IMG/VR virus record: IMGVR_UViG_3300033074_002207 | DNA: 64,000 nucleotides | Direction: 5' to 3' (one strand) | From: a virus | Taxonomy: Duplodnaviria; Heunggongvirae; Uroviricota; Caudoviricetes | In this document: one piece after another, positions 1 to 27,851 of the stretch | How the letters are laid out: each line of letters begins with the position of its first letter | Position numbering within the stretch: the first letter of the stretch is position 1 | Position numbers and translations under genes: made by a program | The notes under the pieces: model-generated | Databases searched by the model: none | Told to the model about the DNA's origin: nothing | What the model saw: only the letters and a program-made list of their open reading frames with translations

Positions 1-435
1 ATGAAAAAATGTTCAGTCTGTCTTGAGTTTAAACACCAAGATGAATTTGAAAAGAAAGGGTTAAAACCCGATGGTTCTCAACGATTCACAAGTCGATGTA
101 AGTTTTGTGCTAAGACTAAACAAAAAGAGTCATATTCGCAAGATTTACACGGAGTAAGAACAAAAAAACGCAATGCTGTCTTGACAAAGTTGCGAGAGTT
201 GAAAAACTACGTTAATGTTCTGAAAAGTAATCCATGCACAGATTGCCACCAATCTTTTGACCCGGTGGCGATGGACTTTGACCATGTAAATGGTCAAGAA
301 AAGTACATGGATGTATCCACGATGTGTGACAAAGGCTTCAGTAAGGAAAAGATTCTGCAAGAGATTGCAAAATGTGAACTAGTCTGTGCTGTTTGTCATA
401 GGATTCGTGAGAAAAACAGACGACTTGATGTGTAG
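1..435 (+). CDS. HNH homing endonuclease (N-terminal CxxC...CxxC zinc finger; C-terminal HNH motif DFDHVNG...CAVCH)
   Basis: ORF 144 aa; the motifs DHVNG..N..C..CH and two CxxC pairs are read directly from the translation. Confidence 0.7.
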   Translation: MKKCSVCLEFKHQDEFEKKGLKPDGSQRFTSRCKFCAKTKQKESYSQDLHGVRTKKRNAVLTKLRELKNYVNVLKSNPCTDCHQSFDPVAMDFDHVNGQEKYMDVSTMCDKGFSKEKILQEIAKCELVCAVCHRIREKNRRLDV

Positions 436-934
436 CCGCAAACAATTTCGGCAGTTTGGTGTCGATAAGATATTCCCTTGAGAAAGGGAGAAAGGGTAAA
501 AACCTGTCTACGGTTCCCGCCGCATTAGCGAAAGCTGGTGCGGTCATCCAAACAAGCCCAGTTCCTGTGAGCTTCACGTGACCAACACGTGGAGATATTA
601 ACAGTAAATGGGGAAGCGAAATGCTTGTGCTGTGTGAGGGTAACACTTTAGCGCAGTTGCAAGCCACGGCCGCAAGCCGTAAAGTTTCCACGCAAACCAT
701 TGGTGTTTAAGAGACTAAGGGTAGTCATAGGGTTCGAGTTTTGCAGACAAGAGCTTTATGGAGTCGGCTTCGGTCGGCTTTAGCATGATGAGAGGAGAGA
801 GCCAGGTGTGGATTTGGCTGGATTCTTGAAATCACGTTGAGTAATCTCGCAAAGATGAAAGGCAGAGAGGTGTGTTGTATTTTGTACGTCAAAAGCGTAT
901 GAAGCAATGGCACACGCACATCTCGGTAGACTTC

Positions 935-1010
935 GCAAATAATAGCTCATTGGTAGAGCGTCTGTATGAAGAACAGAAGGCATTTGGTTCAATTCCGAAT
1001 GTTTGCACTA
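935..1010 (+). pseudogene. tRNA-like element (cloverleaf with GAA anticodon loop) embedded in the non-coding region; 3-nt acceptor/D spacer, 3' CTA instead of CCA
   Basis: acceptor gcaaata/tgtttgc, D stem gctc/gagc, anticodon stem tctgt/acaga with loop atGAAga, T arm tttgg-ttcaatt-ccgaa. Confidence 0.35.
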
Positions 1011-2166
1011 AACGCAAAAGTCGTGTGCTGTATGGAGTGAAAACCGCTTCTTTCCAAGGCGAAAGCGCTTGGAGCGATAAGACTCGCAAGGTCGAATCGT
1101 AGTGTGTGGATGAACGACGGTGGGTTTAGCGACCCTTTGCTGCTCGCAAGGTAGACGGCTATTAAGATATGCACAGTAGCTTCATATGTAGCTCGGGACG
1201 CCTTCCGAGGATAAATAAAGGCAGCGGTGCTATCGTACTATGGGCAACTGTAGTGGATAAGCTGAGAATCTACGCCGCAAGCGTGGAGTAATGCAGTATA
1301 AAGCGATAGCGTAGTTGGTAAATCTAAGCCAGCCTTAACTAGATTTAAACGAGTTGTGTCCAAATGGTACTGGAAACAGTGGACAAGAGTTGTAGTAAGA
1401 ACCAACAAGACTACGCCCCTGAAGGTCGGCGGGAACACAGGCGACGAGACGAATAAAAAGCCTAATCGACCAAATTCGTGGCAGTTCGGAGAGACGAACA
1501 CCTTTTACAAGGGGGAACCAAACCTAGTAGTCGCGCTGCAAAGCCCGACAAGCTAGTGGAAAACCCCTTGTAAGCCAGATTTCGCACATGGATGTGCAAA
1601 ACGAGTTGCGATGAAGAGATAGCCTGATACGAACGCCTAGGCCGTGGTCAAAAGCAGGTAAAGTGGCAACCTCACTCTTCCGTGAATAAAAACACGCAAA
1701 AAACTATGGCGCTCTGGAGAGACAGAGACTAAGATTTAGCATCTTTTGATGCGACAAGAGTTGAAAATGCGTTGATGGCATACGCAACCTCTAGTTGGAG
1801 AGGAGAGCCCGGACTTTGAAATACGAAGTCGAATCACACTGCATGCGGTGTTACTAGCCCAATACCATCATAACAGGTGACAGTTCGGAGAGACGAACGT
1901 TAAGTTTGACGGCAACGTGGGAGGAGGAGTTAACCTCCGTTGTTTGTCAGGGATTGCTGAAGACTCCGTAGGCGTCCCAAGATTTTCCCGTAGAGTCGCA
2001 ACCTCTCGAAAGAGAGAACACAGGAAGTGCTTAGTCCCTGGACGCAGGATAAGGCTAAGGCAAACTAGAGACTCGGCGTCGAGCCTACTATGTGTAGGAC
2101 TGAGCGGCAGTGTGCTATCAGGCGAAAAAAGAACTGCGCAAGACACGTGACTGATATGCGGGATAT

Positions 2167-2198
2167 GGGCGAGAGTAGAAATATTCTCGCCCTTTTTT
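2167..2198 (+). terminator. intrinsic terminator (gggcgaga...tctcgccc + TTTTTT)
   Basis: 8-bp GC-rich stem followed by T6. Confidence 0.7.
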
Positions 2199-2250
2199 GT
2201 TTTAACCCCTTTTATTTATGGTATACTGAATCTTCAGGAGTAAAATCACA

Positions 2251-3204
2251 ATGATTTGGTTATCTATCTTTATGCTGCTGGTGTGCGTAATTGCTTTTAT
2301 TGTCTCATTCGGACTTGAGGATGAAAGCAAAACAATCGCTAAAGTGGTTTCTGGCATCACGTTCGTAATCGCGCTGGTGACTTTTCTGTTCGCTTCTATT
2401 AAGGTAATTGCACCTGGACATGTCGGTGTTCAAGTAACCTTTGGAACAGTAAATTCAAAACCGCTACTGAATGGTGTTCATTTCGTCAATCCGTTTTCAC
2501 GTGTCGAATCTGTAGAGGTTCGAACATTTGAATACACCATGTCTTCAACATCTAATGAAGGAGCACGACAAGGCGACGACTCTGTTCGTCTTTTTTCCAA
2601 GGATGTCCTACCTATGGATGCCGATATTACTATCATGTGGCGTCCAGTTCCTTCAATGGTGCCTTGGCTCTATCAACATATCGGCAATCACAACGATTAT
2701 GTTGAGAAAATTATTCGCCCATCTTCGCGCTCAGCATTTCGCAATGCTGTAGTACAATACACTGCTCAAGAAGCTATTACTTCGGCACGAGAACGATTAT
2801 CGACAGATGTTTCAAAACAAATGGGTGAATCAATTAATAAGATTCTGTCAAATAATGAAAATTACCCCGGTGATTGCTTCGTTATTCCAGATGTTCTGAT
2901 TCGAAATATCGAGCCACCTGAAAAGTTAAAAGATGCGGTGCAGTCTAAGCTAGTTGCTGACCAAGAAGCTCAACGAATGCAGTTTGTGCTTATCAAGGAA
3001 AAGCAGGAAGCTGAGCGAAAGCGCATTGAGGCTCAGGGTATTGCAGACTTCCAGAGAATCGTAACTCAAGGTATTAGCGAACCTTTACTTGAATGGAAGG
3101 GTATTGAAGCTACACTTGAGCTAGCTAAGAGCAGCAATGCTAAGGTGGTTGTGATTGGAAGCGGAAAGAATGGATTGCCCATTATCTTGGGTCAAGAAAA
3201 GTAA
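2251..3204 (+). CDS. SPFH/band-7 (stomatin/prohibitin/HflKC-like) membrane protein
   Basis: N-terminal hydrophobic helices followed by APGHVGVQVTFGTV...VNPFSRVESVEVRT and a coiled-coil-like Q/E/A/K-rich tail; AGGAG RBS and TATACT -10 upstream. Confidence 0.55.
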   Translation: MIWLSIFMLLVCVIAFIVSFGLEDESKTIAKVVSGITFVIALVTFLFASIKVIAPGHVGVQVTFGTVNSKPLLNGVHFVNPFSRVESVEVRTFEYTMSSTSNEGARQGDDSVRLFSKDVLPMDADITIMWRPVPSMVPWLYQHIGNHNDYVEKIIRPSSRSAFRNAVVQYTAQEAITSARERLSTDVSKQMGESINKILSNNENYPGDCFVIPDVLIRNIEPPEKLKDAVQSKLVADQEAQRMQFVLIKEKQEAERKRIEAQGIADFQRIVTQGISEPLLEWKGIEATLELAKSSNAKVVVIGSGKNGLPIILGQEK

Positions 3205-4216
3205 AAATCCCTCAAAATCGCAAACAGTGAAATAGATAAAAAGATTTGTTCGTTGTCATTGTAACGTCCCAAGTCGTTGATATGCTGGCTTGGGGTAGCG
3301 GGTACAAACACACGAGAGAGTAATTACTCAAGTTACGCAAGAGTAAAGCAACATGAGCGTAAGCGAACAATCTACAAAGTTTTGTGGTATAATACTTACA
3401 AGGACTTTGAAAGCTGAATAACGACGATTTGGAGTGTGGCAAAATTCTGTCAATAGGCAGATACCCACTTGCAGGGTAATACCAGCCTCGCAGATAAGAG
3501 GCAAACGCGCAAGGCTCCATTTAGATTTGGTGATAGTGGAAACACCCTTGCTCGTAGGAGTGTTGCGTGGTGGTAAACCAGCCGAAGGAAGGCTCTAAGG
3601 TAGCTACGAGTACATTGTCATGACGTGTAGTGAGACAAAAACGCAACATTGCAGGAAAATAGCCGAATATCCTGTTCACCAAAGATTTCACCACAAGGTG
3701 ACGTTTCTCATTTCGTAAAAATGAGTGGTGGAACGTGGCGCGGATAATCCGTGGCTATCGCCCCTTTTTCGCTGGGCTGCGCGACTGGAGCAGTCACTTC
3801 GGTAAGGCGAAACGTTCTCATACGTAAAATGAGTGGAGCAGAGTTTTCGGTAATCTCGCGCAATAAAACCGACTTTTTCAATTTACTCTTTTGTAAATAT
3901 AAAAATTGTTATATTAACCAAAAGGGGGATGTCAGAATATCCAGAATCTGGCAGGGAGCGCAACCTATATATAAGAGCGCGGGTGGTTTTGCAAGTTTAC
4001 CCATAACCGAACTGCGGGCAGTCAGTCCTTAAGTGACCCTTTTATCCACAGCGGAAGGCTTGAGCAAAAAAAGTTCTGTGGCGTGAGTGGTTGGGTTGCC
4101 CCCCCCGACACAACTTTTGCCTGTGACGAACAACGGGTTTATTTAGTAAATAGGGGCTATTGGATTAATTTAATATAGCCCCGCTAAAACAATAGAAACA
4201 ATAAATGAAAACAATG

Positions 4217-4247
4217 GGCGGGTGTGAAAAGCCCGCCTTCAATTTTT
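4217..4247 (+). terminator. intrinsic terminator (ggcggg-loop-cccgcc + ttcaattttt)
   Basis: 6-bp GC stem plus T-run immediately before the 4246 promoter. Confidence 0.55.
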
Positions 4248-4274
4248 CCTCAAAATGATTTGATGTGCTATAAT
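4246..4274 (+). promoter_or_regulatory. promoter: TTCCTC(-35 position)-17 bp-TATAAT
   Basis: ttcctcaaaatgatttgatgtgc tataat; the ORF starts at 4280. Confidence 0.6.
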
Positions 4275-4279
4275 CAAAT

Positions 4280-4585
4280 ATGCCTAGAATTACAGTCAAT
4301 CAAAAAGAAATCGTCGTTAATTTTCAGCATGGCACTCAGCCGAGCAGCTATAACGGTAAGCGACCACGCCCAGATGCAGATTACACCAAGTGTGTTATTA
4401 TTGCTGGACCAGAGGGTTGTCGTGATGAGCAAAAGGAAGTAGAGGGCGAAGCCACAGTTGTTCGCTATTACCGCGACCCACAGAACCGAAAGGAAGCACG
4501 TCGAAATGCTATTCTCCGCGCTCTTGACCAAAGCACTCTCAATAAGGAAGAGAGGGCTGCGGTATGGCAAACCATTCGAAAGTAA
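4280..4585 (+). CDS. hypothetical protein (basic/acidic, 101 aa)
   Basis: ORF directly downstream of the promoter. Confidence 0.45.
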   Translation: MPRITVNQKEIVVNFQHGTQPSSYNGKRPRPDADYTKCVIIAGPEGCRDEQKEVEGEATVVRYYRDPQNRKEARRNAILRALDQSTLNKEERAAVWQTIRK

Positions 4586-5299
4586 ATGTTTGAGTCTGCT
4601 AAGCTGATAGTGCCAGAGTTTCCGCGTACCGCCCACCTGCCAGTGGAGCCGAACGCAGAGCACGATGACATTATAGCCACAGACTCGGAACTTTTGCTAT
4701 TTCTAAACTCCGAGATTTACGTCGAAGAAAAAATCGACGGCACTAATCTCGGAGTTGCTCTTGTTAATGGAGAACCCATTGTTCGCAATCGCTCCCATGT
4801 GTTGCGAAAGAGTTATAGTAAATGCAAAACTCCCTCTCAAATCCAATATCAGCGCTTTTGGTCATGGTTTTATGACAACACCAATAAATGGCGCAACCTG
4901 AATAAAGAGCTTGGGTTTGAAGCCAGTATCTATGGCGAATGGTTGTATGCTCGACATGTTGTTGCATACGACCGTCTGCCATCCCTCTTTATAGCATACG
5001 ATATTTACAATTCGGCTGAAAGAGAGTTTTTACCACCCAAAGAAAGTCGTGATGCACTTGCTTTTTGTGGATTTGAAATTCCACCATTGCTAGATATTGG
5101 TGTGTTTTCAACAGCAGAGTTAATTGCGCTGCGTGATGGCTCCAGTAAATATTCAACGGGTTCACCACGTGAAGGCATCTTTCTGAAATCATCAAATGGT
5201 CAACAGCGATATAAAATGGTGTCTCCCTGGTTTAAAAGCGACGATAATTGGAATAAACAACCGCTTGTTCGAAATGAGTTGGGTAAAATAACAAAATGA
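4586..5299 (+). CDS. RNA ligase, Rnl2/DraRnl-like nucleotidyltransferase
   Basis: motif I lysine EEKIDGTN plus N-terminal FPRTAHLP; the same pair of motifs recurs in ORF 51722. Confidence 0.6.
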   Translation: MFESAKLIVPEFPRTAHLPVEPNAEHDDIIATDSELLLFLNSEIYVEEKIDGTNLGVALVNGEPIVRNRSHVLRKSYSKCKTPSQIQYQRFWSWFYDNTNKWRNLNKELGFEASIYGEWLYARHVVAYDRLPSLFIAYDIYNSAEREFLPPKESRDALAFCGFEIPPLLDIGVFSTAELIALRDGSSKYSTGSPREGIFLKSSNGQQRYKMVSPWFKSDDNWNKQPLVRNELGKITK

Positions 5300-5487
5300 A
5301 AGTGAAATGCTGGGAATGCGACGGTTTAGGACGTATAAGAATAGAAAGAACCGACCCTGCGTTGCATATCTTTACTATGGGCATATCCTGGATAATGGAG
5401 AAACTAATTGAATCAGACCCATATGATGATAGATTTTGGCAAGATTGCCACATTTGTGACGGATATGGATGCCAAGTTCAAGACTAA
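5296..5487 (+). CDS. small zinc-finger protein with two DnaJ-type CxxCxGxG repeats
   Basis: CWECDGLGR and CHICDGYGC. Confidence 0.45.
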   Translation: MKVKCWECDGLGRIRIERTDPALHIFTMGISWIMEKLIESDPYDDRFWQDCHICDGYGCQVQD

Positions 5488-5493
5488 AGTAAA

Positions 5494-5793
5494 ATGAAAA
5501 AACCAACAAATAAATCGAACGGCTCTAACAAGGGCAACAGAAACAATCGGTCATACAAACCCAAAAAGGTTGATTCCGGCAAAGAGGAAGGAATCGAACT
5601 AGATGGCGTTGTTACAGAAAACCTGTCTAATGGACGCTTCCGCGTGAAACTCGAAAATGACATGGAAATTCTGGGGCATATCAGTGGAAAAATTCGTACT
5701 CACTATATTCGCATCATGATTGGCGATAAAGTGAAAATTGAAATGAGCCCATATGACTTGACAATGGGGCGTATCGTTTTTCGATACCGATAA
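5494..5793 (+). CDS. infA: translation initiation factor IF-1 with Lys/Asn-rich N-terminal extension
   Basis: S1-like OB core ...[52 protein letters not shown] closely parallels bacterial IF-1. Confidence 0.85.
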
Positions 5794-11412: not shown

Positions 11413-11489
11413 GGCGGCGTAGTGTAACGGTCAGCATACCACCCTCTCAAGGTCGGAGATTGCGGGTTCGAATCCCGTCGTCGCTACCA
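11413..11489 (+). tRNA. tRNA-Glu(CTC) (hand-folded)
   Basis: acceptor ggcggcg/cgtcgct, anticodon stem ccacc/ggtcg with loop ctCTCaa, T arm gcggg-ttcgaat-cccgt, CCA encoded. Confidence 0.6.
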
Positions 11490-11507
11490 AAATCTCAATC
11501 AACACAC

Positions 11508-11583
11508 GGGGCGGTCGTCTAGCGGTATAGGATTTATCCCTTTCAAGGATAAGAGCGGAGTTCGAGTCTCCGTCGCCCTACCA
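11508..11583 (+). tRNA. tRNA-Glu(TTC) (hand-folded)
   Basis: acceptor ggggcgg/tcgccct, anticodon stem tatcc/ggata with loop ctTTCaa, CCA encoded. Confidence 0.6.
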
Positions 11584-11647
11584 AATTGATTTAATCAGAT
11601 ACTTGTAGTTTAAAGGTGAGCACAGTTCTTTTAACGAAAGACTAACC

Positions 11648-12151
11648 ATGCCTATATGCGATAAGTGTCAATGTTCATTTCCAAATCATGTTGTAGTTGA
11701 TGGTGTGCAAAGAAATCTTTGTAAACGTAGATTTTGTCTTGTCTGCTCTCCTTTTGGAAAGCGTAATAGACTTGATTTGACCAAACTCAAAGATGGAAAC
11801 AAAATTTGTAAAACATGTGGTGTGTTTAAACCAGCGGATGAATTTTATGTTTATAAAGGAGGAAACAAATTAAATCCACACTGCAAGGTGTGTATGAAAA
11901 AGAAAGTATTGGAACAACAAAGAGCATTAAAACAAGCGGCATTAGAATATCTTGGCGGTAAATGCGGTAGATGTGGTTATGATAAATACAGTGGTGCTTT
12001 GGTGTTTCACCATCGTGTTGAATCTGAAAAATCATTTGCAATATCTATGAAACGAGGATATTCTTTAACTGGTGAGGTTAAAGCCGAACTTGATAAATGC
12101 GATTTGGTTTGTGCCAACTGCCATGCAGAAATACATGGCGAAATACAATAG
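11648..12151 (+). CDS. HNH homing endonuclease with N-terminal zinc-ribbon
   Basis: GKCGRCGY...FHHR...CDLVCANCHAEIH. Confidence 0.75.
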   Translation: MPICDKCQCSFPNHVVVDGVQRNLCKRRFCLVCSPFGKRNRLDLTKLKDGNKICKTCGVFKPADEFYVYKGGNKLNPHCKVCMKKKVLEQQRALKQAALEYLGGKCGRCGYDKYSGALVFHHRVESEKSFAISMKRGYSLTGEVKAELDKCDLVCANCHAEIHGEIQ

Positions 12152-12156
12152 AATAT

Positions 12157-12232
12157 GGCCCGTTCGTCTAATGGTCAGGACACAACTCTTTCAAGGTTGG
12201 AACGAGGGGTTCAATTCCCCCACGGGTCACCA
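12157..12232 (+). tRNA. tRNA, anticodon TTC (Glu-type) (hand-folded)
   Basis: acceptor ggcccgt/acgggtc, D stem gtct/ggac, anticodon stem caact/ggttg with loop ctTTCaa, CCA encoded. Confidence 0.55.
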
Positions 12233-12239
12233 AATTCAT

Positions 12240-12317
12240 GCTGGTGTCTTCTAATTGGAATAGGAACCCTCCCTTTCAAGGAGTGCAATGCGGGTTCGAG
12301 TCCCGTCATCAGTACCA
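12240..12317 (+). tRNA. tRNA-like, anticodon loop ctTTCaa (Glu-type), weaker anticodon stem
   Basis: acceptor gctggtg/catcagt, T arm gcggg-ttcgagt-cccgt, CCA encoded; anticodon stem has one mismatch. Confidence 0.45.
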
Positions 12318-12392
12318 AAATTTATATGGCTCCATCTTCTAAGGGTAGGAAATAAAGAAGGTGTTACTTGGTTCATTCTTGAATATTATTGT

Positions 12393-13124
12393 ATGAAAAA
12401 AAGAACATCTATTATTTGGGAAGAAAGCACGGATGATTTTGCGAAAAGAGTAGAGTCCTGTGGAACAATCGCTGGCGTACTTCGCTCGTATAATCTGGCG
12501 ATGTCGGGCAACGGATATAAAGTTGTTAACGAAAGAATTGAAGCAGATGGTTTATCTCATTTGATTCAACGTGGGTTGAATAACAGGCTCGGGAAGCCTG
12601 GGGCGAATATTGCTCGTCCATTAAGCGAAGTATTGGTTAAAAACCGACCAACATCATCTCACAATTTGAAAAACAGATTGGTTAAAGAAGGTGTGCTGGC
12701 GTATGAATGTGTGAAATGTGGGAATAACGGTATGTGGATGGGTGAAAAAATATCTCTACACTTAGACCATATAAACGGAGACAGAAACGATAATCAAATA
12801 GAAAATCTAAGGATTTTATGTCCAAATTGTCACAGCCAAACCCCAACACATTCTGGCAAAGACAAAAGGGCAAAGTGCCGTGATTGTTTTAAAATTATTA
12901 CAAGTCATCAACAACAGCGATGTCAAGCTTGTGCCAATAAATTGTTGGTGAAACGCCCGATGAAATTTGATATTTCAAAAAGCGAATTGGAAAAACTTGT
13001 GTGGGAGAAACCCACAGAACAAATTGGAAGAGACTTTGGTGTGTCTGGCAATGCCGTAGCTAAAAGATGTAAAAAACTTGGAGTTGACAAACCACCGCGA
13101 GGATATTGGTCTGGCAGCAAATAA
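12393..13124 (+). CDS. HNH homing endonuclease with C-terminal DNA-binding (HTH-like) region
   Basis: LHLDHINGDRNDNQIENLRILCPNCHSQT; start moved to the internal Met because the ORF-track start overlaps the tRNA. Confidence 0.7.
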   Translation: MKKRTSIIWEESTDDFAKRVESCGTIAGVLRSYNLAMSGNGYKVVNERIEADGLSHLIQRGLNNRLGKPGANIARPLSEVLVKNRPTSSHNLKNRLVKEGVLAYECVKCGNNGMWMGEKISLHLDHINGDRNDNQIENLRILCPNCHSQTPTHSGKDKRAKCRDCFKIITSHQQQRCQACANKLLVKRPMKFDISKSELEKLVWEKPTEQIGRDFGVSGNAVAKRCKKLGVDKPPRGYWSGSK

Positions 13125-13157
13125 TCGTGAGTTCAATTCTCCGTGGAGTCACCAGAA

Positions 13158-13186
13158 ATCCTCAAAATCTTCGGCGCGTGTATAAT
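13158..13186 (+). promoter_or_regulatory. promoter: ATCCTC-17-TATAAT
   Basis: atcctc aaaatcttcggcgcgtg tataat. Confidence 0.5.
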
Positions 13187-13247
13187 ATCAAAGTTGAATA
13201 GTTTTGACCAGATTGTTGGGGTTGCAAACCTAACAAGCCTCGGAAGT

Positions 13248-13340
13248 ACAACGAGAGAGTCAAATGCGGAGCAGTGTAGTTTAATGGTAGAACGCCCCCG
13301 TGTGGGGGGCGGTGCGGGTTCGAATCCCGTCGTTGTTCCA
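13248..13340 (+). pseudogene. non-canonical tRNA-like element (5-nt anticodon loop, G5/C5 stem); possible degenerate or intron-containing tRNA
   Basis: acceptor acaacga/tcgttgt, T arm gcggg-ttcgaat-cccg; ccccc-gtgtg-ggggg in the anticodon position. Confidence 0.3.
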
Positions 13341-13345
13341 ATAAA

Positions 13346-13807
13346 GTGTATAACACTTTTACTATGGAAAATCATATTAAAACTGTTCGACATGCATCGG
13401 TTTCACAGCTTAACAAAGCAAAAAAGAAATTTGAGTCTTCGGGTAAATGGATAGTTATACCAGCAGATGATGCTACTCGTCTATGCAAAGGGTTTGTAGC
13501 CTTCACAGAGGATGATTCGCTGCCAGAAGAGAGTCATTACGCTCCAATGTATGATGGCAATGATGCACCATGCTCTGTTATAGAACATGATACTTTTTAC
13601 AGCTATATACTGTCAAAAAATAACTTTTCAAACCTAGAGGGCACTGTCACAATTCCGTGTGATTGTCCCAGAAAATTGATGCACGGTTTTGTTGTTTATC
13701 CACATCGAGAATGGCATTGCATCGAGCTTAAAAAAATCACCCACTTAGATAGACAGAGTTCGGGTTTTCAACAAATGTTGCTAGAGCGCGAGAATCGCAC
13801 AAAATAA
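13346..13807 (+). CDS. hypothetical protein
   Basis: 153-aa ORF. Confidence 0.45.
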   Translation: MYNTFTMENHIKTVRHASVSQLNKAKKKFESSGKWIVIPADDATRLCKGFVAFTEDDSLPEESHYAPMYDGNDAPCSVIEHDTFYSYILSKNNFSNLEGTVTIPCDCPRKLMHGFVVYPHREWHCIELKKITHLDRQSSGFQQMLLERENRTK

Positions 13808-13826
13808 TCTGGTATACTAATCGCTG

Positions 13827-14069
13827 ATGTTTAGCAACTATTTCAAATGGCGTCTCAAAAAATCATTTGTTCTTGCCTGGGCAAACAACTCGTTTTTTAT
13901 CTGTTTTTTGTTTTTAGGCATGGTGATTGCTGATTTGGTGATGGGGAAATATACCAAAGCAACATTCTTGTCTGGAATGTTGCTTTTTTGGTTTGTTATG
14001 ATAATTGCACTGTCATACGCATTTGTGCCAAGACAATATAGGTATCCAGGAGAAGTAAATGAACGATAA
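13827..14069 (+). CDS. small membrane protein
   Basis: two hydrophobic helices. Confidence 0.4.
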   Translation: MFSNYFKWRLKKSFVLAWANNSFFICFLFLGMVIADLVMGKYTKATFLSGMLLFWFVMIIALSYAFVPRQYRYPGEVNER

Positions 14070-14430
14070 TCTTGTTATTCCCGACGACGCTAATATTGAC
14101 TGGTGGCTTGAGCATCAGTTAAGTATCATGGATGAATCCAGTAAATCTTTGATTAAGGGCTTAAGCAGTCCAAAAGATATGGGTAAATTTCATCATGGGA
14201 CTGGAACCGCAATTCGTAACCATTATGGATTGTGGCATCAAAATGGATTAACCAAGTTCTTTAACGAGGAATTTGGCGTTTATCATGGAGATGATATTAG
14301 TTCAATTTTGTTAGAAGCATTGTGGCACCGCATCCATGATAAAGAATATGACCCACAGCCCACTATTGAGCGTTTTAAGCAGCACTGGGAGCAAATGGGC
14401 TGTGATATGAAAGGAGAAAAAAATGCCTAG
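14059..14430 (+). CDS. hypothetical protein
   Basis: 123-aa ORF overlapping its neighbours by a few nt (operon-like). Confidence 0.45.
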   Translation: MNDNLVIPDDANIDWWLEHQLSIMDESSKSLIKGLSSPKDMGKFHHGTGTAIRNHYGLWHQNGLTKFFNEEFGVYHGDDISSILLEALWHRIHDKEYDPQPTIERFKQHWEQMGCDMKGEKNA

Positions 14431-14695
14431 ACTTGAAATGTGGACTACCATTGATATTAACGGAGAGCTATCCCTTGCAGGTTATGTCTATGACGATGAG
14501 CGCAAAATACCAGAAAGCTCACAATATGCTGACGGGCACCGTCTTGTTACTAGCAAGGTATTAAAACTAGATAGGGAAGTCAAAACAGCACAAACTCGAA
14601 ATACTTTATATAGCTTAGGCGAAGAGCTTAAATCCGATGAAGTGCTTACAGCGGAAAATTTTGATTTATTAATGCCCCGAATCGCAAAAAGTTAA
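14423..14695 (+). CDS. hypothetical protein
   Basis: 90-aa ORF. Confidence 0.4.
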   Translation: MPRLEMWTTIDINGELSLAGYVYDDERKIPESSQYADGHRLVTSKVLKLDREVKTAQTRNTLYSLGEELKSDEVLTAENFDLLMPRIAKS

Positions 14696-14741
14696 AAAAG
14701 ATTCCGCACGAGTCAAGCTATCTTCCGAATATAGTATTGTA

Positions 14742-14927
14742 ATGGAAGAAAACACACAACTTTATCGACGTGCGCTTATATTTGTGGTAAAGCAAATGAC
14801 TGAACAACAGCGAGACGAACTATTGAAAAGATGCCCAGAGTATTTGTTTGGATGTCTTCTTGGAGCAAAAATGGTGGCGAATTTATCCTCAAAATCAATC
14901 ACGCAGAAATATCCAACCAATGGCTAA
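14742..14927 (+). CDS. hypothetical protein
   Basis: 61-aa ORF. Confidence 0.3.
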   Translation: MEENTQLYRRALIFVVKQMTEQQRDELLKRCPEYLFGCLLGAKMVANLSSKSITQKYPTNG

Positions 14928-15279
14928 ATCTGTTGATATCTATGAAATTATCGAATCATGTGCCAAGCATAGTGATATCTTCGGTTTTCATCTAGCCCGC
15001 GTTGTTCCAAAAAACAATCAAAAAATGCCCTATATGGATGCAAGAGAGATTATTGACAACCACGAATGGGGAACACATGGTGAAAGCGGGAAGGAGCCAC
15101 TTACCAAAGTGTTTCTTATTAACTGTGAAACCAATCATCTTAAAAATATCTTGCGAACACAGCCGCAAATCACAGCTTTAACCACATTAGTGATTATGGC
15201 GATTTTAATGGAGCGGGGAGAAATTTCTAAAACTAGCAATGTCATTAAAATTTCCTCAAAATCTAAACAAACGCCATAG
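14920..15279 (+). CDS. hypothetical protein (start at the Met overlapping the upstream stop, ATGGCTAA)
   Basis: in frame with ORF-track entry 14848..15279. Confidence 0.35.
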   Translation: MAKSVDIYEIIESCAKHSDIFGFHLARVVPKNNQKMPYMDAREIIDNHEWGTHGESGKEPLTKVFLINCETNHLKNILRTQPQITALTTLVIMAILMERGEISKTSNVIKISSKSKQTP

Positions 15280-15287
15280 AAGTCATT

Positions 15288-15686
15288 ATGCATAATAGTA
15301 GATTGTTTAGTGACGTTCAATATGACGCTCTTGATGCTTTTACAAAGGGGTTGATGTACGAAATCAACAGAGAGTCTTTGTCACATTCGCTACACACCAT
15401 GCTACAACTAGGGGCAGTAGTGGAGCGCCATGTGCTCAAGGCATTAAGCCATGAATGCCAACTAGAACATTCTGTGCTTTTGGCATATTGTATCAACCAC
15501 CCGCAGCTTTCAAAATGGTATTTGACCACCGACAACAGATATGCCGACTTCTTTATGGAGCAAATACCTATTGAACCACCATATATCGAAAATCCTGAAG
15601 GCTTTGCATGTTTGTGGGGCAACTTGGCATCTCAAATGATTGGCGTCATTATCGGGAACATACGAGAGGAAGGATTAAGTGGTTAA
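15288..15686 (+). CDS. hypothetical protein
   Basis: 132-aa ORF after the TTCCTC promoter at 15252. Confidence 0.45.
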   Translation: MHNSRLFSDVQYDALDAFTKGLMYEINRESLSHSLHTMLQLGAVVERHVLKALSHECQLEHSVLLAYCINHPQLSKWYLTTDNRYADFFMEQIPIEPPYIENPEGFACLWGNLASQMIGVIIGNIREEGLSG

Positions 15687-16254
15687 ATCAGTCGAATTTC
15701 TAAAAGATTGGCGTTGCTTTAAAAAGGGTGACAAAATCGAACTAAAGCCAGGAATTAACCTTTTGACTGGCGACCAGGGTTGTGGCAAATCATCACTACT
15801 TCTCATGTTGAAGAATGATGGTTTCTTGTTAAATGACAAAATAGCTGTTGTTGATGCGCCAAGCGGAACAATATCATTTTATCTAGATTTTGAGAAAGGG
15901 AGTATCCGCACGATGGATATTAACGCAGCAGACCATATGGGTATTTCCACTGGCGCTGTTTTGGTAAATATGTTTTGCTCTCACGGTGAATCGGTGAACA
16001 CTACCCTGAGAAGCATGCCAAAAAAATCTGGCGCGGTAATGCTGAACGATGAACCAGACATGGCTTTGTCCATTCGCAGCATTCGCAAGTTGCACCAACT
16101 ATTTACAAAGCATGTCGAGGAATATCAACAGCAAATCATTGTTTCATGTCATAATCCTTACCTAATGGAATTGGTGGGCGAGGTATGTTCGTTGGAGCAT
16201 CGAAGGACTATGCCATATTTCGAGTTTAAGAATCTAATGGAGGAAGAAAAATAA
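15679..16254 (+). CDS. small P-loop ATPase (ABC/AAA_15-like: Walker A GDQGCGKS, Walker B LNDEPD)
   Basis: motifs in the translation. Confidence 0.55.
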   Translation: MVKSVEFLKDWRCFKKGDKIELKPGINLLTGDQGCGKSSLLLMLKNDGFLLNDKIAVVDAPSGTISFYLDFEKGSIRTMDINAADHMGISTGAVLVNMFCSHGESVNTTLRSMPKKSGAVMLNDEPDMALSIRSIRKLHQLFTKHVEEYQQQIIVSCHNPYLMELVGEVCSLEHRRTMPYFEFKNLMEEEK

Positions 16255-16758
16255 ATGGGAGTAAGTTATCGTTCAGTTGTAGTGGCAGGGGTTCGTTTTA
16301 GAGACTTAAAGCCAGTAACACGCAAAGAAGATGTCACTGTTGTCCGATATGACACAATTACAGGAAAACCATACGATGTTGTGATTGAAAAATGGTACAC
16401 AAAAATTGGCAACATCGAAATCGAGGGCAATTTGCGCGATGTTCTTAAGCGATTTTGTGAAGATTTTGAGTCAGAAGAAGAAATGAAAAATGAATTTGGG
16501 GACTCACTTCCCTCATGCTGGAGTGGCTCTTATGTATCTGATATTAGGTATGACAATGACCTGTTAGACCAAATTGTCATTGGATATCGCGCTTCTAAAG
16601 GACATGCTTCGTCTTGGGACGTTAATCAAATGATTCATGAATTTGAGCATGATGATGTTTTAATGGCAATGACAAGCATAGAAAATTGGCTTGTTGAAAT
16701 TGGCGCAAACGAGCGCATCGTGCCAAGCCTATTTGTTGTTCAGTCTGCGTCTTATTGA
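16255..16758 (+). CDS. hypothetical protein
   Basis: 167-aa ORF. Confidence 0.45.
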   Translation: MGVSYRSVVVAGVRFRDLKPVTRKEDVTVVRYDTITGKPYDVVIEKWYTKIGNIEIEGNLRDVLKRFCEDFESEEEMKNEFGDSLPSCWSGSYVSDIRYDNDLLDQIVIGYRASKGHASSWDVNQMIHEFEHDDVLMAMTSIENWLVEIGANERIVPSLFVVQSASY

Positions 16759-16774
16759 GGTATAATGACATATT

Positions 16775-16933
16775 ATGAAATCTAATCAAGATGTATGTCA
16801 GTGTGAATGTCATCAGGACATGTATATCATACACGATGCTCCATGCTGCGAAAAATGCAAGGGCTGTGGTCAAATGATAAATCTTTTTGTGTGGGATGCA
16901 CACAAAACACGATGCAATAAGGAGAAACAATAA
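16775..16933 (+). CDS. small Cys-rich (zinc-binding) protein, 52 aa
   Basis: CQCECH...CCEKCKGCG; TATAAT at 16761; not in the ORF track (below 60 aa). Confidence 0.35.
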   Translation: MKSNQDVCQCECHQDMYIIHDAPCCEKCKGCGQMINLFVWDAHKTRCNKEKQ

Positions 16934-17223
16934 TGTATTGCATGCACTTAAACGAACCAGTTGTAAAAAATATCAATTGCCGATTTTCAGACGATAAGGC
17001 TTGTGTTATTGTTGCTAAAACAGAAAAAGCTCTAGTAGACTATTTTAAAGAACTCAACTCATTTCGTCAGTTCGGCACTCCTATAGAGACTGATTTTACA
17101 CGACTCGCTGGATATGCCACATGGTGCGGTAAAGTGGCATTAATAGATGACAAGGAAATCTTCATCACCCATGTTTTTTGGGCTGAAGATGGGAAAATCG
17201 AAGAAATTCCTCAAAATACTTGA
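16933..17223 (+). CDS. hypothetical protein
   Basis: 96-aa ORF (TAATG overlap). Confidence 0.4.
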   Translation: MYCMHLNEPVVKNINCRFSDDKACVIVAKTEKALVDYFKELNSFRQFGTPIETDFTRLAGYATWCGKVALIDDKEIFITHVFWAEDGKIEEIPQNT

Positions 17224-17248
17224 CATCCGCTTATAAAGAGGATACAAT
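17207..17248 (+). promoter_or_regulatory. promoter: TTCCTCAAAAT box + TTGACA-17-TACAAT
   Basis: ttcctcaaaatac ttgaca tccgcttataaagagga tacaat. Confidence 0.6.
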
Positions 17249-17254
17249 AGGGAT

Positions 17255-17432
17255 AGGAAAAACCAAACACTATGGAAACCAACGCACGAATCAATATGGA
17301 GAACGCAAACGGCAATGCTATGCTATTGCTTGGTCTCTTGTTACTTCGCGCTGCTGACTGTAGTGTGTAATCGAATGTGTTAGAGAAACCAAACGAGAGC
17401 CCCGGTCAGCAGAAAGTTGACCGGGGTTTTTT
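17255..17432 (+). ncRNA. short transcription unit (possible sRNA or 33-aa peptide METNARINMENANGNAMLLLGLLLLRAADCSV) ending at a strong terminator
   Basis: from the 17207 promoter to the 9-bp stem ccccggtca/tgaccgggg + T6 at 17400-17432. Confidence 0.3.
17400..17432 (+). terminator. intrinsic terminator
   Basis: ccccggtcagcagaaagttgaccggggtttttt. Confidence 0.75.
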
Positions 17433-17474
17433 CTATTTAGAACATTGATAATTGCATAGTGGTGAAAGTAATAC

Positions 17475-17563
17475 GCAGATGTGGCGAAATTGGTAGTACG
17501 CGCTAGTCTCAGAAACTAGTGCCCTAATAAGGCGTGGAGGTTCAAGTCCTCTCATCTGCACCA
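17475..17563 (+). tRNA. tRNA-Leu(CAG), type II long variable arm
   Basis: acceptor gcagatg/catctgc, Leu-type D arm tggcgaaattggtag, anticodon stem ctagt/actag with loop ctCAGaa. Confidence 0.65.
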
Positions 17564-17565
17564 AC

Positions 17566-17651
17566 GGGAATATGGCGAAATTGGTAGCACGCGGCAAGCT
17601 CAAACCTTGCTGGAGAAATCCGTGGGGGTTCAAGTCCCTCTATTCCCACCA
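17566..17651 (+). tRNA. tRNA-Leu(CAA), type II
   Basis: acceptor gggaata/tattccc, anticodon stem gcaag/cttgc with loop ctCAAac. Confidence 0.65.
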
Positions 17652-17658
17652 AGTTTTT

Positions 17659-17742
17659 GCGGGATTGGCGAAATGGTATACGCGCCAGGTTTAGGTTCTG
17701 GTGGAGCAATCCGTGAGAGTTCGAGTCTCTTGTCCCGCACCA
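17659..17742 (+). tRNA. tRNA-Leu(TAG), type II
   Basis: acceptor gcgggat/gtcccgc, anticodon stem ccagg/tctgg with loop ttTAGgt. Confidence 0.55.
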
Positions 17743-17749
17743 AATTTTT

Positions 17750-17837
17750 GGTCTTCTGGCGAAATTGGTAGCACGCGGCATCCTTAAAAGTTGTTGTCAG
17801 AAATGGCGTCTCGGTTCGAGTCCGAGGAAGACCACCA
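17750..17837 (+). tRNA. tRNA-Leu(TAA), type II (one anticodon-stem mismatch)
   Basis: acceptor ggtcttc/gaagacc, loop ctTAAaa. Confidence 0.5.
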
Positions 17838-17845
17838 AATTTAAT

Positions 17846-17934
17846 GCGAACGTGGTGAAATGGAAGCACACGCTAGTCTTAGGAACTAGTCCGTAGCCAA
17901 TCGGGTGAGAGTTCGAGTCTCTCCGTTCGCACCA
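17846..17934 (+). tRNA. tRNA-Leu(TAG), type II
   Basis: acceptor gcgaacg/cgttcgc, anticodon stem ctagt/actag with loop ctTAGga. Confidence 0.6.
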
Positions 17935-17941
17935 AATTTGT

Positions 17942-18018
17942 GCTGCATTGGTCAAAATGGTAAAGGCAACAGGCTCAGACCCTGAAATCTGAGAGTTCGA
18001 ATCTCTCATGCAGCACCA
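17942..18018 (+). tRNA. type-I tRNA with Gln-like D arm and anticodon loop ctCAGac (CAG, a Leu anticodon); non-canonical
   Basis: acceptor gctgcat/atgcagc, D arm gtcaaaatggtaaaggc, 4-bp anticodon stem cagg/cctg, short variable loop. Confidence 0.4.
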
Positions 18019-18020
18019 AT

Positions 18021-18097
18021 GCTCCTCTAGGCCAACTGGTAGAGTCACATAGCTCAAACCTATGCAAGTCTCGGTTCGAATCCGGGGAGGAGCACCA
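18021..18097 (+). tRNA. type-I tRNA with anticodon CAA (a Leu anticodon) in a short-variable-arm scaffold
   Basis: acceptor gctcctc/gaggagc, anticodon stem catag/ctatg with loop ctCAAac. Confidence 0.5.
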
Positions 18098-18100
18098 AAT

Positions 18101-18177
18101 GTCGCGTTAGCCAAATTGGTAAAGGCAACAGGTCGAGAACCTGAAATCTGAGAGTTCGAGTCTCTCACGCGACACCA
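18101..18177 (+). tRNA. type-I tRNA, near-duplicate of 17942 with anticodon loop tcGAGaa (GAG; C at position 33) - non-canonical
   Basis: acceptor gtcgcgt/acgcgac; differs from 17942 mainly in the acceptor and the anticodon loop. Confidence 0.35.
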
Positions 18178-18184
18178 AGTTTTT

Positions 18185-18271
18185 GCGGATGTGGCGAAAT
18201 GGTAGCACGCGCAACGTTGAGGGCGTTGTGGGAGAAATCCCGTGGAGGTTCAAGTCCTCTCATCCGCACCA
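18185..18271 (+). tRNA. tRNA-Leu(GAG), type II
   Basis: acceptor gcggatg/catccgc, anticodon stem caacg/cgttg with loop ttGAGgg. Confidence 0.6.
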
Positions 18272-18343
18272 AATGTCCCGTCAGAGTGTGATATCCACTC
18301 TGCGAAGTCAAAAAACAGATAGGACGCTATCTATTGACCGGAA

Positions 18344-18435
18344 AGCGGGAAGATGACTGTGGCGAAATTGGTAGCCGCTGGCCGTGACGAGCGGTCTGCT
18401 GAGATAAGAACAGCGTGCAGGTTCGAGTCCTGTCG
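18344..18435 (+). tRNA. type-II tRNA-like with non-canonical anticodon loop (tgacgag) and an A1:C72 mismatch; identity unresolved
   Basis: Leu-type D arm, long variable arm, T arm gcagg-ttcgagt-cctgt, CCA encoded. Confidence 0.35.
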
Positions 18436-18446
18436 GTCACACCATT

Positions 18447-18932
18447 GTGTTGTATAATATCACAGATATGAACAAACATTCTATAGAAAATTCGATAAAA
18501 AAGGGTGACATCCTTTTAACGGACAAGGTGTGGTATTATGTGCAGTCAGACCCAGCGGTTGAAAATTCAGGGTATTTCTATGTGCCAAGACCTATAGCAG
18601 AAATCTCCTATGATTATGAAAATTATACTGACGAAGAGATTATGGAATTTTATATAAGAGATACACTGAATGGTCTTCGAAAAGCAGTGGAGAAGAAGTT
18701 AGAAAAATACGCCGACGATATTAGAAAAAAATGGAAGATGGATAGAGAAGAGCTATTAGTGGGAGCAGTTTATAAAACTGGTGATGGAGAATATGTTCAA
18801 ATTGTTCAAAAAGATTCAGATGGTGTAATGTTTCATGAAATGGAAGCCACGCCCACAACCAAATACACAGTGAGAAAGGACGTTCAAAAAAAGTCTAGAT
18901 TTGCTCTAAATATAGTTGAGAGAGTAAAGTAA
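18447..18932 (+). CDS. hypothetical protein
   Basis: 161-aa ORF. Confidence 0.45.
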   Translation: MLYNITDMNKHSIENSIKKGDILLTDKVWYYVQSDPAVENSGYFYVPRPIAEISYDYENYTDEEIMEFYIRDTLNGLRKAVEKKLEKYADDIRKKWKMDREELLVGAVYKTGDGEYVQIVQKDSDGVMFHEMEATPTTKYTVRKDVQKKSRFALNIVERVK

Positions 18933-18980
18933 CCCTGTGTTCAACCCAACTATCCAACTTACAAATAAGAAAATAGTTTT

Positions 18981-19065
18981 GGGAATATGGCGAAATGGTA
19001 GCACGCGCTGGTCTTAAAAATCAGTGGAGAAATCCGTGGAGGTTCGAGTCCACCTATTCCCACCA
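18981..19065 (+). tRNA. tRNA-Leu(TAA), type II
   Basis: acceptor gggaata/tattccc, anticodon stem ctggt/atcag with loop ctTAAaa. Confidence 0.6.
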
Positions 19066-19187
19066 AATGTATGACATCCTCTCACCACTATGGAAAAATC
19101 CTCAAAATCAGCGACAACGCAATAGTTTAGTGTCAGGTAGGGGAACATCCCGGAGCGGAGTCTCCGCCCCCCTGACTCCAAAATATC

Positions 19188-19496
19188 ATGAAAACAAATC
19201 AAGAATCAGTTCTTTCTAAACTCAATCCGAGAGAACAGCAGTTTGTCAAAGACGTGGTAAACGACATGCTATTTGATGCCAACGGTATCAGAATCAAAAT
19301 GAAGGGCGCAAAGCGTATCCGCGCAATCATGGATTCAATAGCATTGTGTATTTACGAATCACAAGGTTCTCACGGAAATCCCGATTTTAACCCGCCTGAT
19401 GCAGATTGGGTGGAGAAAGCCCGAGCAGCACAACTAGCAAAGGAAAAGCCCTACATCATTAAAGACGACGACGATGATGATGATTGGCCTGATTAA
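19188..19496 (+). CDS. hypothetical protein with poly-Asp C-terminus
   Basis: 102-aa ORF. Confidence 0.4.
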   Translation: MKTNQESVLSKLNPREQQFVKDVVNDMLFDANGIRIKMKGAKRIRAIMDSIALCIYESQGSHGNPDFNPPDADWVEKARAAQLAKEKPYIIKDDDDDDDWPD

Positions 19497-19532
19497 TTGA
19501 AGCAAAACGAACGATAATATAATCGAGGAACT

Positions 19533-19733
19533 ATGAAAGTACATTGCTCACAATGCGGCGAAGTTGACATCAACGAGGATATGGGATTCTGGTGTGATGA
19601 ATGCGGTGATAGAATCGAAGAATCAGACATCTTGTCTTCATTAATGGTCGAGTTTAGAATGATACAGCAGCCTGTTCAAGCGCTAGAAGCAAATCGTTCA
19701 TAAAATATTGTGCCCTCTTGTTGGAATGGTAGA
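19533..19733 (+). CDS. small zinc-ribbon protein (CxxC-x14-CxxC); 3' end overlaps the next tRNA so the true stop is uncertain
   Basis: hand translation MKVHCSQCGEVDINEDMGFWCDECGDR...; not present in the supplied ORF track. Confidence 0.25.
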
Positions 19734-19795
19734 CAAGGAGGTCTTAAAAACCTTTGCCGAAAGGCGTCCCAGTTCGAGTCTGGGAGGGGGCACCA
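19713..19795 (+). tRNA. tRNA-Leu(TAA), type II
   Basis: acceptor gccctct/agggggc (two G-U pairs), anticodon stem gaggt/acctt with loop ctTAAaa. Confidence 0.5.
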
Positions 19796-19856
19796 AATTT
19801 AACACACATTGGAATACTTAAAGGTACGTGTCTACCATAAATAGAATAACGAGTAT

Positions 19857-20366: not shown

Positions 20367-20373
20367 TGTCGAA

Positions 20374-21381: not shown

Positions 21382-21383
21382 AC

Positions 21384-23157: not shown

Positions 23158-23375
23158 CTATTCAATGTGAGCAATGTAAACAATCTTCAAAGCCAGTCTA
23201 TAAAACAGAAGCACAACTGCCTGTCGATTATGAACATGGTTTCTTTTGCAGTGTGTGTGGTGGAAGATTTTCTACTGATGTTGTGTTGTGGGCGGTAATA
23301 CAAGCCTTGGAAAAAACCAGCCAAGACGCTTCATCCGCGCATGACCCATATTTTCGCGGCGAAATTACCAGATAG
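23154..23375 (+). CDS. small zinc-ribbon protein
   Basis: CEQCKQ...CSVCGG. Confidence 0.4.
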   Translation: MTIQCEQCKQSSKPVYKTEAQLPVDYEHGFFCSVCGGRFSTDVVLWAVIQALEKTSQDASSAHDPYFRGEITR

Positions 23376-23404
23376 CTGTATAATCCACTTGGTGTTGATG
23401 AACA

Positions 23405-23611: not shown

Positions 23612-23620
23612 GGTGCGCGA

Positions 23621-23705: not shown

Positions 23706-23721
23706 ATAAATGGAGACAAAA

Positions 23722-27156: not shown

Positions 27157-27207
27157 AATGTAATAATTTGGTTTTTAAAGGCATTTAACCTACCCTGGTG
27201 TATAATG

Positions 27208-27501: not shown

Positions 27502-27507
27502 GAAGAT

Positions 27508-27846: not shown

Positions 27847-27851
27847 AATAC

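Follow-up and report, generated by a model that had tools for sequence, protein, structure and literature searches.

What does an otherwise gene-dense phage genome hold in nearly 1.8 kb that encode no protein? The question is raised by a 64,000-nt stretch of DNA (the window) from a virus of the Caudoviricetes, IMG/VR record IMGVR_UViG_3300033074_002207. An initial annotation had pointed to a block at 440-2200 free of open reading frames (ORFs), G+C-richer than its neighbours and full of hairpins, which contained a direct repeat and a tRNA-like cloverleaf with a GAA loop and lay between an HNH gene and a terminator. Every one of these elements was found where it had been placed. Among the four explanations offered at the time, that of a large structured non-coding RNA proved correct, and this RNA can be named: it is a GOLLD RNA that continues on its 3' side into a structured, unclassified extension. 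The remaining explanations (the 3' portion of a group I intron, a packaging or origin region and a decayed tRNA island) found no support. We put at about 0.78 the probability that 445-2198 forms the body of one non-coding transcription unit in a large phage and is composed of GOLLD and a modular tail of autonomous units. The features are collected in Table 1.

The longest ORF that overlaps 440-2200 on either strand counts 120 amino acids (338-700, minus strand, reaching into the end of the HNH gene), in agreement with the ORF-free description, and the next credible gene on the 3' side encodes an SPFH/Band_7 protein (2251-3204). The G+C content is indeed higher inside the block (0.45-0.51) than in its flanks (0.37-0.43). 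As to the hairpins, the structure is backed by covariation in relatives, but the folding z-score of the single sequence, -3.4 for the plus strand and -2.95 for the minus strand, fails to separate the strands. Relatives were found via homologues of the adjacent SPFH protein (L037, L038, L041/L042, L043, L045, L046 and L047), and a metagenome scan, for which an 18-mer invariant in the GOLLD 3' domain was used, added L155, L173 and L189; of its 49 matches 3 were real. L001 and L002 are identical to the window and supplied no variation. Among cultured phages and in IMG/VR no close relative was found; the SPFH-protein relatives in IMG/VR are only 36-40% identical and lack GOLLD. The non-coding block is syntenic in all of the relatives from L037 to L189 and can be aligned from window position 445 on. 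Nucleotide identity to the window amounts to 76-96% in 445-1331, 63-99% in 1332-1740 and 67-83% in the SPFH coding sequence. Substitutions in the block are spread evenly over the three phases (e.g. 23/28/31; the pattern in the SPFH coding sequence is 32/9/124), and the relatives are separated by many 1- and 2-nt indels within it. Because of this identity across relatives and the lack of 3-periodicity, 445-2198 on the plus strand is one conserved non-coding unit that does not evolve like coding sequence.

The first part of this unit was recognized by its match to the Rfam family GOLLD (RF02032), which aligned with 867-1331 over model positions 1-416 of 416 (148.9 bits, E 9.8e-41). In gathering mode Rfam reported tRNAs only; the GOLLD match appeared in E-value mode. 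All six relatives that were scanned have a GOLLD match of 133-154 bits together with the embedded tRNA. In cryo-electron microscopy GOLLD consists of a less conserved 5' region (~420 nt) and a universally conserved 3' region (~410 nt), the latter with a disordered linker that faces the cage interior and sometimes carries tRNAs (PMC12286853). The tRNA-like element at 935-1008 lies within the unpaired linker of the GOLLD model alignment. Upstream of the Rfam match, the exact 20-mer TGTGAGGGTAACACTTTAGC at 633-652 equals residues 133-152 of the 5' domain of env-38 GOLLD (sequence taken from the supplement of PMC12286853), and compensatory changes were found in 33 of the 118 predicted pairs of 445-866 (six sequences). 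The surroundings are also those of a GOLLD RNA, in that the phage has 23 tRNA genes, an HNH endonuclease, RtcB and an RNA ligase in the window. Together, the full RF02032 match, the linker tRNA and the env-38 20-mer show, at the level of sequence, that 445-1331 (~890 nt) is a GOLLD RNA with a variable 5' and a conserved 3' domain. By analogy with the known cages, which are 12- to 14-mers made of RNA alone and in which symmetric kissing loops hold the multimers of GOLLD, as those of OLE, together (PMC12286853), this part would self-assemble into a multimeric cage with the tRNA-like element tethered inside. When a 19-mer of the 5' domain was searched in IMG/VR, one contig only was returned. An env-38-like GOLLD contig from IMG/VR (L036) contains a transfer-messenger RNA according to ARAGORN (1840-2225) and 19 tRNA genes, 16 of which are clustered just downstream of GOLLD.

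The cloverleaf in the linker had rightly been described as tRNA-like: ARAGORN calls it a tRNA-Phe(GAA), and its Rfam tRNA score of 44.3 bits compares with a cut-off of 29. When 436-2210 was compared by blastn with 50,697 phage records, the sole match was a stretch of 57 nt in this element (943-999), to the tRNA-Phe of a Rhodococcus phage. A decayed tRNA island would not fit, since the block has a single tRNA-like element, in a place, the GOLLD linker, that is known to harbour tRNAs. Among the orthologues the D arm, the T arm and most of the acceptor stem are conserved and the anticodon is variable. It reads GAA in the window, L037 and L189, UCA in L155 and L045, GUG in L038, UUU in L041 and L173, CAU in L043 and UCU in L046; with six different anticodons among nine related phages no stable tRNA identity is kept. 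The window and L037 are 96% identical overall, and their cloverleaves differ solely at two positions of the anticodon loop. Because the body is conserved, the anticodon loop varies freely and no CCA is encoded, we read the cloverleaf as a structural domain of tRNA shape, the loop of which is unconstrained or diversifying, and probably not as a dedicated decoder.

It might nevertheless be a working tRNA that is excised and charged, in which case the anticodon differences would be true identity switches that adjust decoding, an opal suppressor included. This is rather unlikely, but it has points in its favour: all orthologues score 44-58 bits with the Rfam tRNA model and have canonical D and T arms, the phage has 22 further tRNAs, an arginyl-tRNA synthetase and a fragment of a class-I synthetase, and tRNAs in GOLLD linkers have been discussed as stored tRNAs (PMC12990946). 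Several features of the orthologues argue against it. The body remains unchanged when the anticodon changes; the GUG version (L038) has A73 and no G-1. Bacterial tRNA-His is expected to have both G-1 and C73. Mismatches affect the top pairs of the acceptor stem in L041, L043, L045 and L046, and in L041 position 33 is C where U is expected. Finally, the element is without an encoded CCA, against 21 of the 22 free-standing tRNAs of the window that have one. No report of anticodon variation in a GOLLD linker tRNA was found in the literature searched.

The second part of the unit, 1332-2166, matched no family of Rfam 15 with lax filters; only a chance match of 12.4 bits (E 9.7) was obtained. A seven-way alignment resolved these 835 nt into three paralogous modules, A, B and C, and a different terminal domain D. 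A unit starts with AGAUUU, a small hairpin and an (A/C)RAGUUG element, and it ends with UGRC-R-[5 bp]-GARAGA-[5 bp], called here the GARAGA hairpin. Modules A-C are multi-stem structures, each closed by a GUUG/UGRC helix. For each module and for domain D compensatory changes were counted and pairing was compared with slid controls and shuffles (Table 1). A covariance model (R1) built from module C matched module B in L045 (E 1.8e-6) and L046 (E 9.5e-5) and module A in L041, L038, the window and L043 (E 5e-4 to 2e-2; window 0.0015), which identifies modules A-C as paralogues. R1 also matched shorter elements in unrelated IMG/VR phages, and in these short versions the GUUG/UGAC closing helix lies directly 5' of the hairpin. 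A weak R1 match at 28605-28668 was dropped, as the stem positions were unpaired there. The modules were also considered as duplicates of the GOLLD 5' domain, with which they share GACAAGAG...GAGAGGAGAG, and this was rejected when nhmmer profiles of the modules gave no significant match in 445-1331.

The composition of the tail varies. In L046 module A is deleted and domain D is absent, in L041 module B is deleted and one extra module is present, and no counterpart of domain D could be aligned in L045. The env-38-like GOLLD of L036 terminates directly after its 3' domain, from which it follows that the tail is specific to the present lineage. The alignments thus show a structured RNA array of independently folding modules, presumably co-transcribed with GOLLD. 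As modules are gained and lost among relatives, and as small versions occur without GOLLD in other phages, we think of them as autonomous. Cleavage at the conserved AG|AUUU junctions (at about 1341, 1577, 1732 and 1980) may set them free, and they need not be integral parts of the cage. RNase E prefers RN|WUU, and the AG|AUUU junctions resemble such sites.

Could the whole of 445-2166 instead be one integrated giant GOLLD variant, whose attached tail forms an extra shell or contacts between particles? There is no terminator between the 3' end of GOLLD and the tail, and conservation is unbroken from 445 to about 1740 in all relatives. Module B moreover carries a loop palindrome of 8 nt, GCCUAGGC, at 1635-1642, which elsewhere reads GUCUAGAC, CGCUAGCG or CUCUAGAG; through these four variants it stays self-complementary at every one of 10 loci, a signature of the kissing loops described for GOLLD and OLE (PMC12286853). 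This palindrome fits a symmetric kissing loop, but it is equally explained by a 2-bp stem that closes a CUAG tetraloop. Further, modules A, B and D are individually missing in close relatives that retain GOLLD, the junction 3' of GOLLD tolerates an insertion of 52 nt in L038, and the same type of module occurs without GOLLD in other phages. We therefore consider an integrated particle rather unlikely and retain GOLLD with a tail of autonomous modules.

A number of points weigh against this preferred reading. The GOLLD score of 148.9 is 1.1 bits under the curated Rfam cut-off of 150, which only L045 exceeds (154.3; the other orthologues score 133-149), although this gathering threshold is a curated cut-off and no biological feature. 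The cage is deduced from homologues of ~800 nt without a tail, and a tail of 835 nt could hinder or change assembly. The covariation comes from 5-7 related sequences, and since these alignments also served for the structure prediction, the difference from the controls is inflated. The cleavage step is weak. AGATTT is common, with 55 occurrences on the plus strand of the 64 kb, and its enrichment at the module junctions (4 in 0.83 kb) is only suggestive. Co-transcription, processing and the ends of the RNA are all deduced from sequence.

The direct repeat noticed initially, two 22-mers at 1478-1499 and 1877-1898 with 21 of 22 positions identical, has the form GTG[GA]CAGTTCGGAGAGACGAAC and is the terminal hairpin of modules A and C. 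The third copy, in module B (1707-1727), has a fully compensated stem, CUCUG/CAGAG. The pattern TGRCRNNNNGGARAGAC has three matches in the 64 kb, all in the tail and all on the plus strand, against 0.00 in 100 shuffles. Across the relatives the stem takes ten covarying forms and the loop is GAGAGA, GAAAGA or GACAGA. The exact 18-mer CAGTTCGGAGAGACGAAC was found in 30 IMG/VR contigs, with the additional 5' prefix TGR in 30 of 30, and in several of these contigs another hairpin lies close by, the stem of which is complementary and differs in sequence. In bacterial genomes (596 Gb) the 18-mer matched 19 times, compared with ~17 matches expected by our own estimate; the prefix was present once, in a 2-kb contig of a metagenome-assembled genome, beside an apparent tRNA start. 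The hairpin motif is virus-specific; in bacterial genomes it does not rise above chance level. Its surroundings vary: in large phages (L009, L035) it stands within tRNA arrays, elsewhere it precedes small ORFs by 3-22 nt, and in T7-like cyanophages it occupies the 5' leader of the major capsid gene. This last place is also where S-CBP1 and NATL1A-7, both in culture, have it, with the stem GGUGG/CCAC and the loops GAGAGA or GAUAGA. A full-text literature search with the sequence of the motif brought up no paper, no pair of exact copies 366-396 nt apart turned up in a metagenome scan, and a scan of IMG/VR for the junction GGARAGACNNNNANTAAGATTT returned 76 matches and no hairpin.

Various identities were considered for the hairpin, in comparison with consensus sequences and not by database tests. 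It was rejected as a sigma-70 promoter (no -10 element at the right distance), as a sigma-54 promoter (consensus unmatched) and as a T7- or SP6-type promoter (stem covariation left unexplained). A lambda boxB/nut site was discarded, the pentaloop and the preceding boxA both being absent, as was a mimic of the sarcin-ricin loop, for which the register is different and a GAGA tetraloop closed by C-G is missing. Hammerhead or hepatitis delta virus-like ribozymes were dismissed on the absence of core nucleotides and of an Rfam match, and a CRISPR repeat mimic on the shortness of the motif. A CsrA site is possible.

Two of the hairpin contexts have features of their own. In the cyanophages an element of ~110 nt, structured, lies upstream of the major capsid gene (S-CBP1, L194, NC_025456.1, around 20950-21060; NATL1A-7, L195, NC_016658.1, around 3420-3480, minus strand). 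Its parts are a hairpin whose loop, CACCUCAGNGUCGGA, is conserved, a middle hairpin that covaries and, at the end, the GARAGA hairpin. In NATL1A-7 the part from the middle hairpin onward lies directly 3' of a tRNA-Gly. The IMG/VR members of this group had no Rfam match. In the jumbo-phage tRNA array of L035, the sequence directly 3' of the GARAGA hairpin (4447-4512, GGGCUUAGAAGCAGCCAUCCUUUAAAGAG) resembles the L11-binding GTPase-associated centre of 23S rRNA, with an Rfam match to LSU_rRNA_archaea of 26.7 bits (E 7e-4).

It is very improbable that the block acts at the level of DNA, whether in packaging or as an origin of replication, with its three 22-nt repeats acting as iterons for protein binding. 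Three similar repeats do lie within 420 bp and an HNH endonuclease gene is adjacent. The spacing of the repeats is irregular, however (228 and 171 nt), all copies are on one strand, and their covarying stems with a fixed loop are those of an RNA-type hairpin, which indicates a folded single strand and not a duplex binding site. Compensatory base-pair changes are moreover found throughout the block, the GC skew shows no break, and the HNH gene is absent from five relatives that retain the region.

A perfect sigma-70 promoter, TTGACA-17-TATAAT, is conserved in 7 of 7 phages in an alignment of the upstream regions (A7); for the window phage it lies at 7561-7589 of L001, 162-190 nt upstream of window position 1. 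The conserved RNA begins with AGATTTCGGCGGTTTGG, about 100-130 nt 3' of the promoter. Between the promoter and 2167 only two weak terminator-like sites with 5-bp stems are present, and no promoter-like site was seen on the plus strand within 1-5000. The terminator had been correctly recognized, and its position is conserved in L037, L038 and L046. Transcription would thus start at the TTGACA-17-TATAAT promoter and proceed through the leader, with the HNH cassette inserted in it, to the terminator.

The HNH assignment of the first ORF was borne out by PHROG (Table 1); a Pfam search gave no match. The gene is part of a cassette of ~490 nt, made up of two hairpins and the HNH ORF, that is inserted directly after CGGCGG and carried only by the window phage and L037; five relatives have an intact, uninterrupted junction. 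The cassette is flanked by an 11-nt duplication (ATTTCGGCNG). Its upstream copy, GATTTCGGCGG, lies at 7694-7704 of L001, and the cassette was inserted after it; at the downstream copy similarity to six relatives starts sharply, at 445. Since five relatives keep an uninterrupted site and the duplication flanks the cassette, the HNH gene is, from the comparison of these loci, a mobile element inserted into the leader that precedes the RNA, and not part of a group I intron. The upstream sequence showed a defined insertion site in a non-coding leader and no split gene. The group I intron model had no match at E<=10 in window 1-5500, and neither had group II; the same type of search finds a real group I intron in locus L005 (62.7 bits). 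The place of the HNH ORF, immediately upstream, is typical of endonucleases encoded in introns, but with no codon periodicity, many short indels, no ORF above 120 amino acids, no intron match and a cassette outside any split gene, there is next to no chance that the block codes for protein, be it through an alternative genetic code or start, or that it represents the 3' half of an HNH-hosting group I intron.

Table 1. Positions and properties of the features in and around the GOLLD-tail unit (window coordinates; the last three columns give the covariation results).
Feature	Position	Strand	Properties	Compensatory changes	Cells paired (slid controls)	Shuffles reaching score
HNH endonuclease ORF	1..435	+	PHROG 2255, E 1.5e-27; mobile cassette in RNA leader
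Downstream copy AATTTCGGCAG of 11-nt duplication	444..454	+	marks conserved 5' boundary of RNA
GOLLD 5' domain (variable)	445..866	+	422 nt; 20-mer common to env-38; covariation
GOLLD 3' domain (universally conserved)	867..1331	+	Rfam RF02032, full-length
tRNA-like cloverleaf, anticodon GAA	935..1008	+	ARAGORN; Rfam tRNA (RF00005) 44.3 bits
Module A	1332..1499	+	terminal hairpin UGGCA-GUUCG-GAGAGA-CGAAC (1479-1499)	10/36	95% (29-36%)	0/500
Module B	1500..1727	+	long hairpin 1500-1574; terminal hairpin UGGCG-CUCUG-GAGAGA-CAGAG (1707-1727)	11/24	94% (27-45%)	0/500
Module C	1728..1898	+	terminal hairpin UGACA-GUUCG-GAGAGA-CGAAC (1878-1898)	14/25	95% (38-46%)	0/500
Domain D	1899..2166	+	unlike A-C; GNRA-type hairpin 2001-2017	17/39	94% (34-47%)	0/500
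GARAGA hairpin sequence			UGACAGUUCGGAGAGACGAAC
Intrinsic terminator closing the unit	2167..2198	+	11-bp stem (2167-2192), 6 GC pairs, then TTTTTTGTTT

As in known GOLLD RNAs (RF02032), a variable 5' domain of ~420 nt is joined here to a conserved 3' domain of ~410 nt with an internal variable linker, and the RNA is located in a phage among tRNA genes. The env-38 GOLLD counts 833 nt and forms a 14-mer cage (PDB 9MEE); that of Streptococcus agalactiae forms a 12-mer. Unlike the known members, which measure about 700-830 nt, the present RNA has a conserved structured tail of 835 nt before the terminator, an HNH gene in its leader and a score slightly below the Rfam cut-off. In the GOLLD of Mycolicibacterium (Morgado et al. 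2020, cited in PMC12990946) a tRNA-Phe is embedded in linker J13/15. The cloverleaf described here is likewise tRNA-Phe-like, and this single-stranded linker of the 3' domain is its location too; it differs in its six anticodons in nine phages, in the absence of an encoded CCA and in an acceptor stem that is partly degenerate in some relatives.

Like ROOL and other large ornate phage RNAs, the unit is a large, highly structured non-coding RNA near tRNA genes. ROOL-type RNAs are multimeric and joined by kissing loops and A-minor contacts. In contrast to ROOL, the tail is built of tandem paralogous modules and not of one intertwined fold, and no ROOL model matched in 1332-2166. The tRNA cluster of T4, which contains extra stable RNAs, is polycistronic, with AU-rich spacers that are cut by host nucleases. 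The unit resembles such phage operons of tRNAs and stable RNAs in that several structured RNAs are arranged, in one apparent unit from promoter to terminator, with short AU-rich spacers. It is unlike T4-type operons in that the elements are multi-stem modules of 170-270 nt with a GARAGA hairpin and not tRNAs, and processing of the modules is here putative.

The GOLLD part and the linker tRNA are already known. With respect to the Rfam library and the literature searched, the conserved modular 835-nt tail, the UGRC-R-stem-GARAGA hairpin and the anticodon variability of the embedded tRNA-like domain appear new. GOLLD is among the largest structured RNAs of bacteria and phages, and the present lineage gives three handles on its role. 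The tail raises the transcript to about 1.7 kb and shows which end of a cage-forming RNA tolerates large additions, which bears both on GOLLD function and on the engineering of RNA cages. Secondly, the change of the anticodon loop among near-identical relatives argues against a simple stored decoder and makes the hypothesis of a decoy for tRNA-targeting defence testable. Thirdly, the hairpin links the GOLLD-tail RNA to the tRNA arrays of jumbo phages and the capsid leaders of cyanophages, and the cultured S-CBP1 and NATL1A-7 allow genetics and RNA sequencing.

A more far-reaching view, which we regard as improbable and put forward as speculation, is that the composite RNA is a multivalent decoy particle with 12-14 tethered tRNA-like domains, to which the GARAGA modules are fused as a new class of phage RNA. 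The anticodon loop could then be under diversifying selection and could sponge or block the anticodon nuclease or another tRNA-targeting defence of the local host. The GARAGA modules could be autonomous and widespread, occurring in the tRNA arrays of jumbo phages and the capsid leaders of cyanopodoviruses, and could have been fused to GOLLD in the present lineage.

Downstream of the SPFH gene a second ORF-poor block of ~840 nt was noticed on the plus strand (3380-4238), with a TATAAT box at 3388-3393 and a strong terminator at 4216-4238. Rfam gave no match to it with lax filters. Parts of it are 74-80% conserved in the relatives, compensatory changes occur in 19 of 63 predicted pairs (3380-3700), and AGAUUU-plus-hairpin junctions at 3242, 3523 and 3683 were attributed to it. 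It is probably another unclassified structured RNA. In some relatives a gene of 373-409 amino acids lies between the RNA terminator and the SPFH gene (L037, 4842-5966; L038, 4869-5990; L041, 4841-5989; L045, 4737-5966). It has weak or faint matches to methyltransferase families in L037, L038 and L041 and is absent from the window phage.

The source is a large phage rich in translation and RNA-repair genes. An arginyl-tRNA synthetase, a class-I synthetase-like protein of 454 amino acids, an RtcB RNA ligase and a Cpn60 chaperonin are encoded in the window (genes at 21793-23157, 46083-47753, 49459-50631 and 57744-59390), and an RNA ligase, an eIF-1A-like protein and a SpoU methylase are found near the RNA gene. 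The tRNA set of the window (11413-28008) is skewed: of its 23 genes 13 are for Leu, 4 for Glu and 5 for Phe, the embedded one included. Three 77-nt 'Leu' tRNAs at 17942-18177 are without a long variable arm, and four Phe(GAA) genes stand in tandem at 27683-28008.

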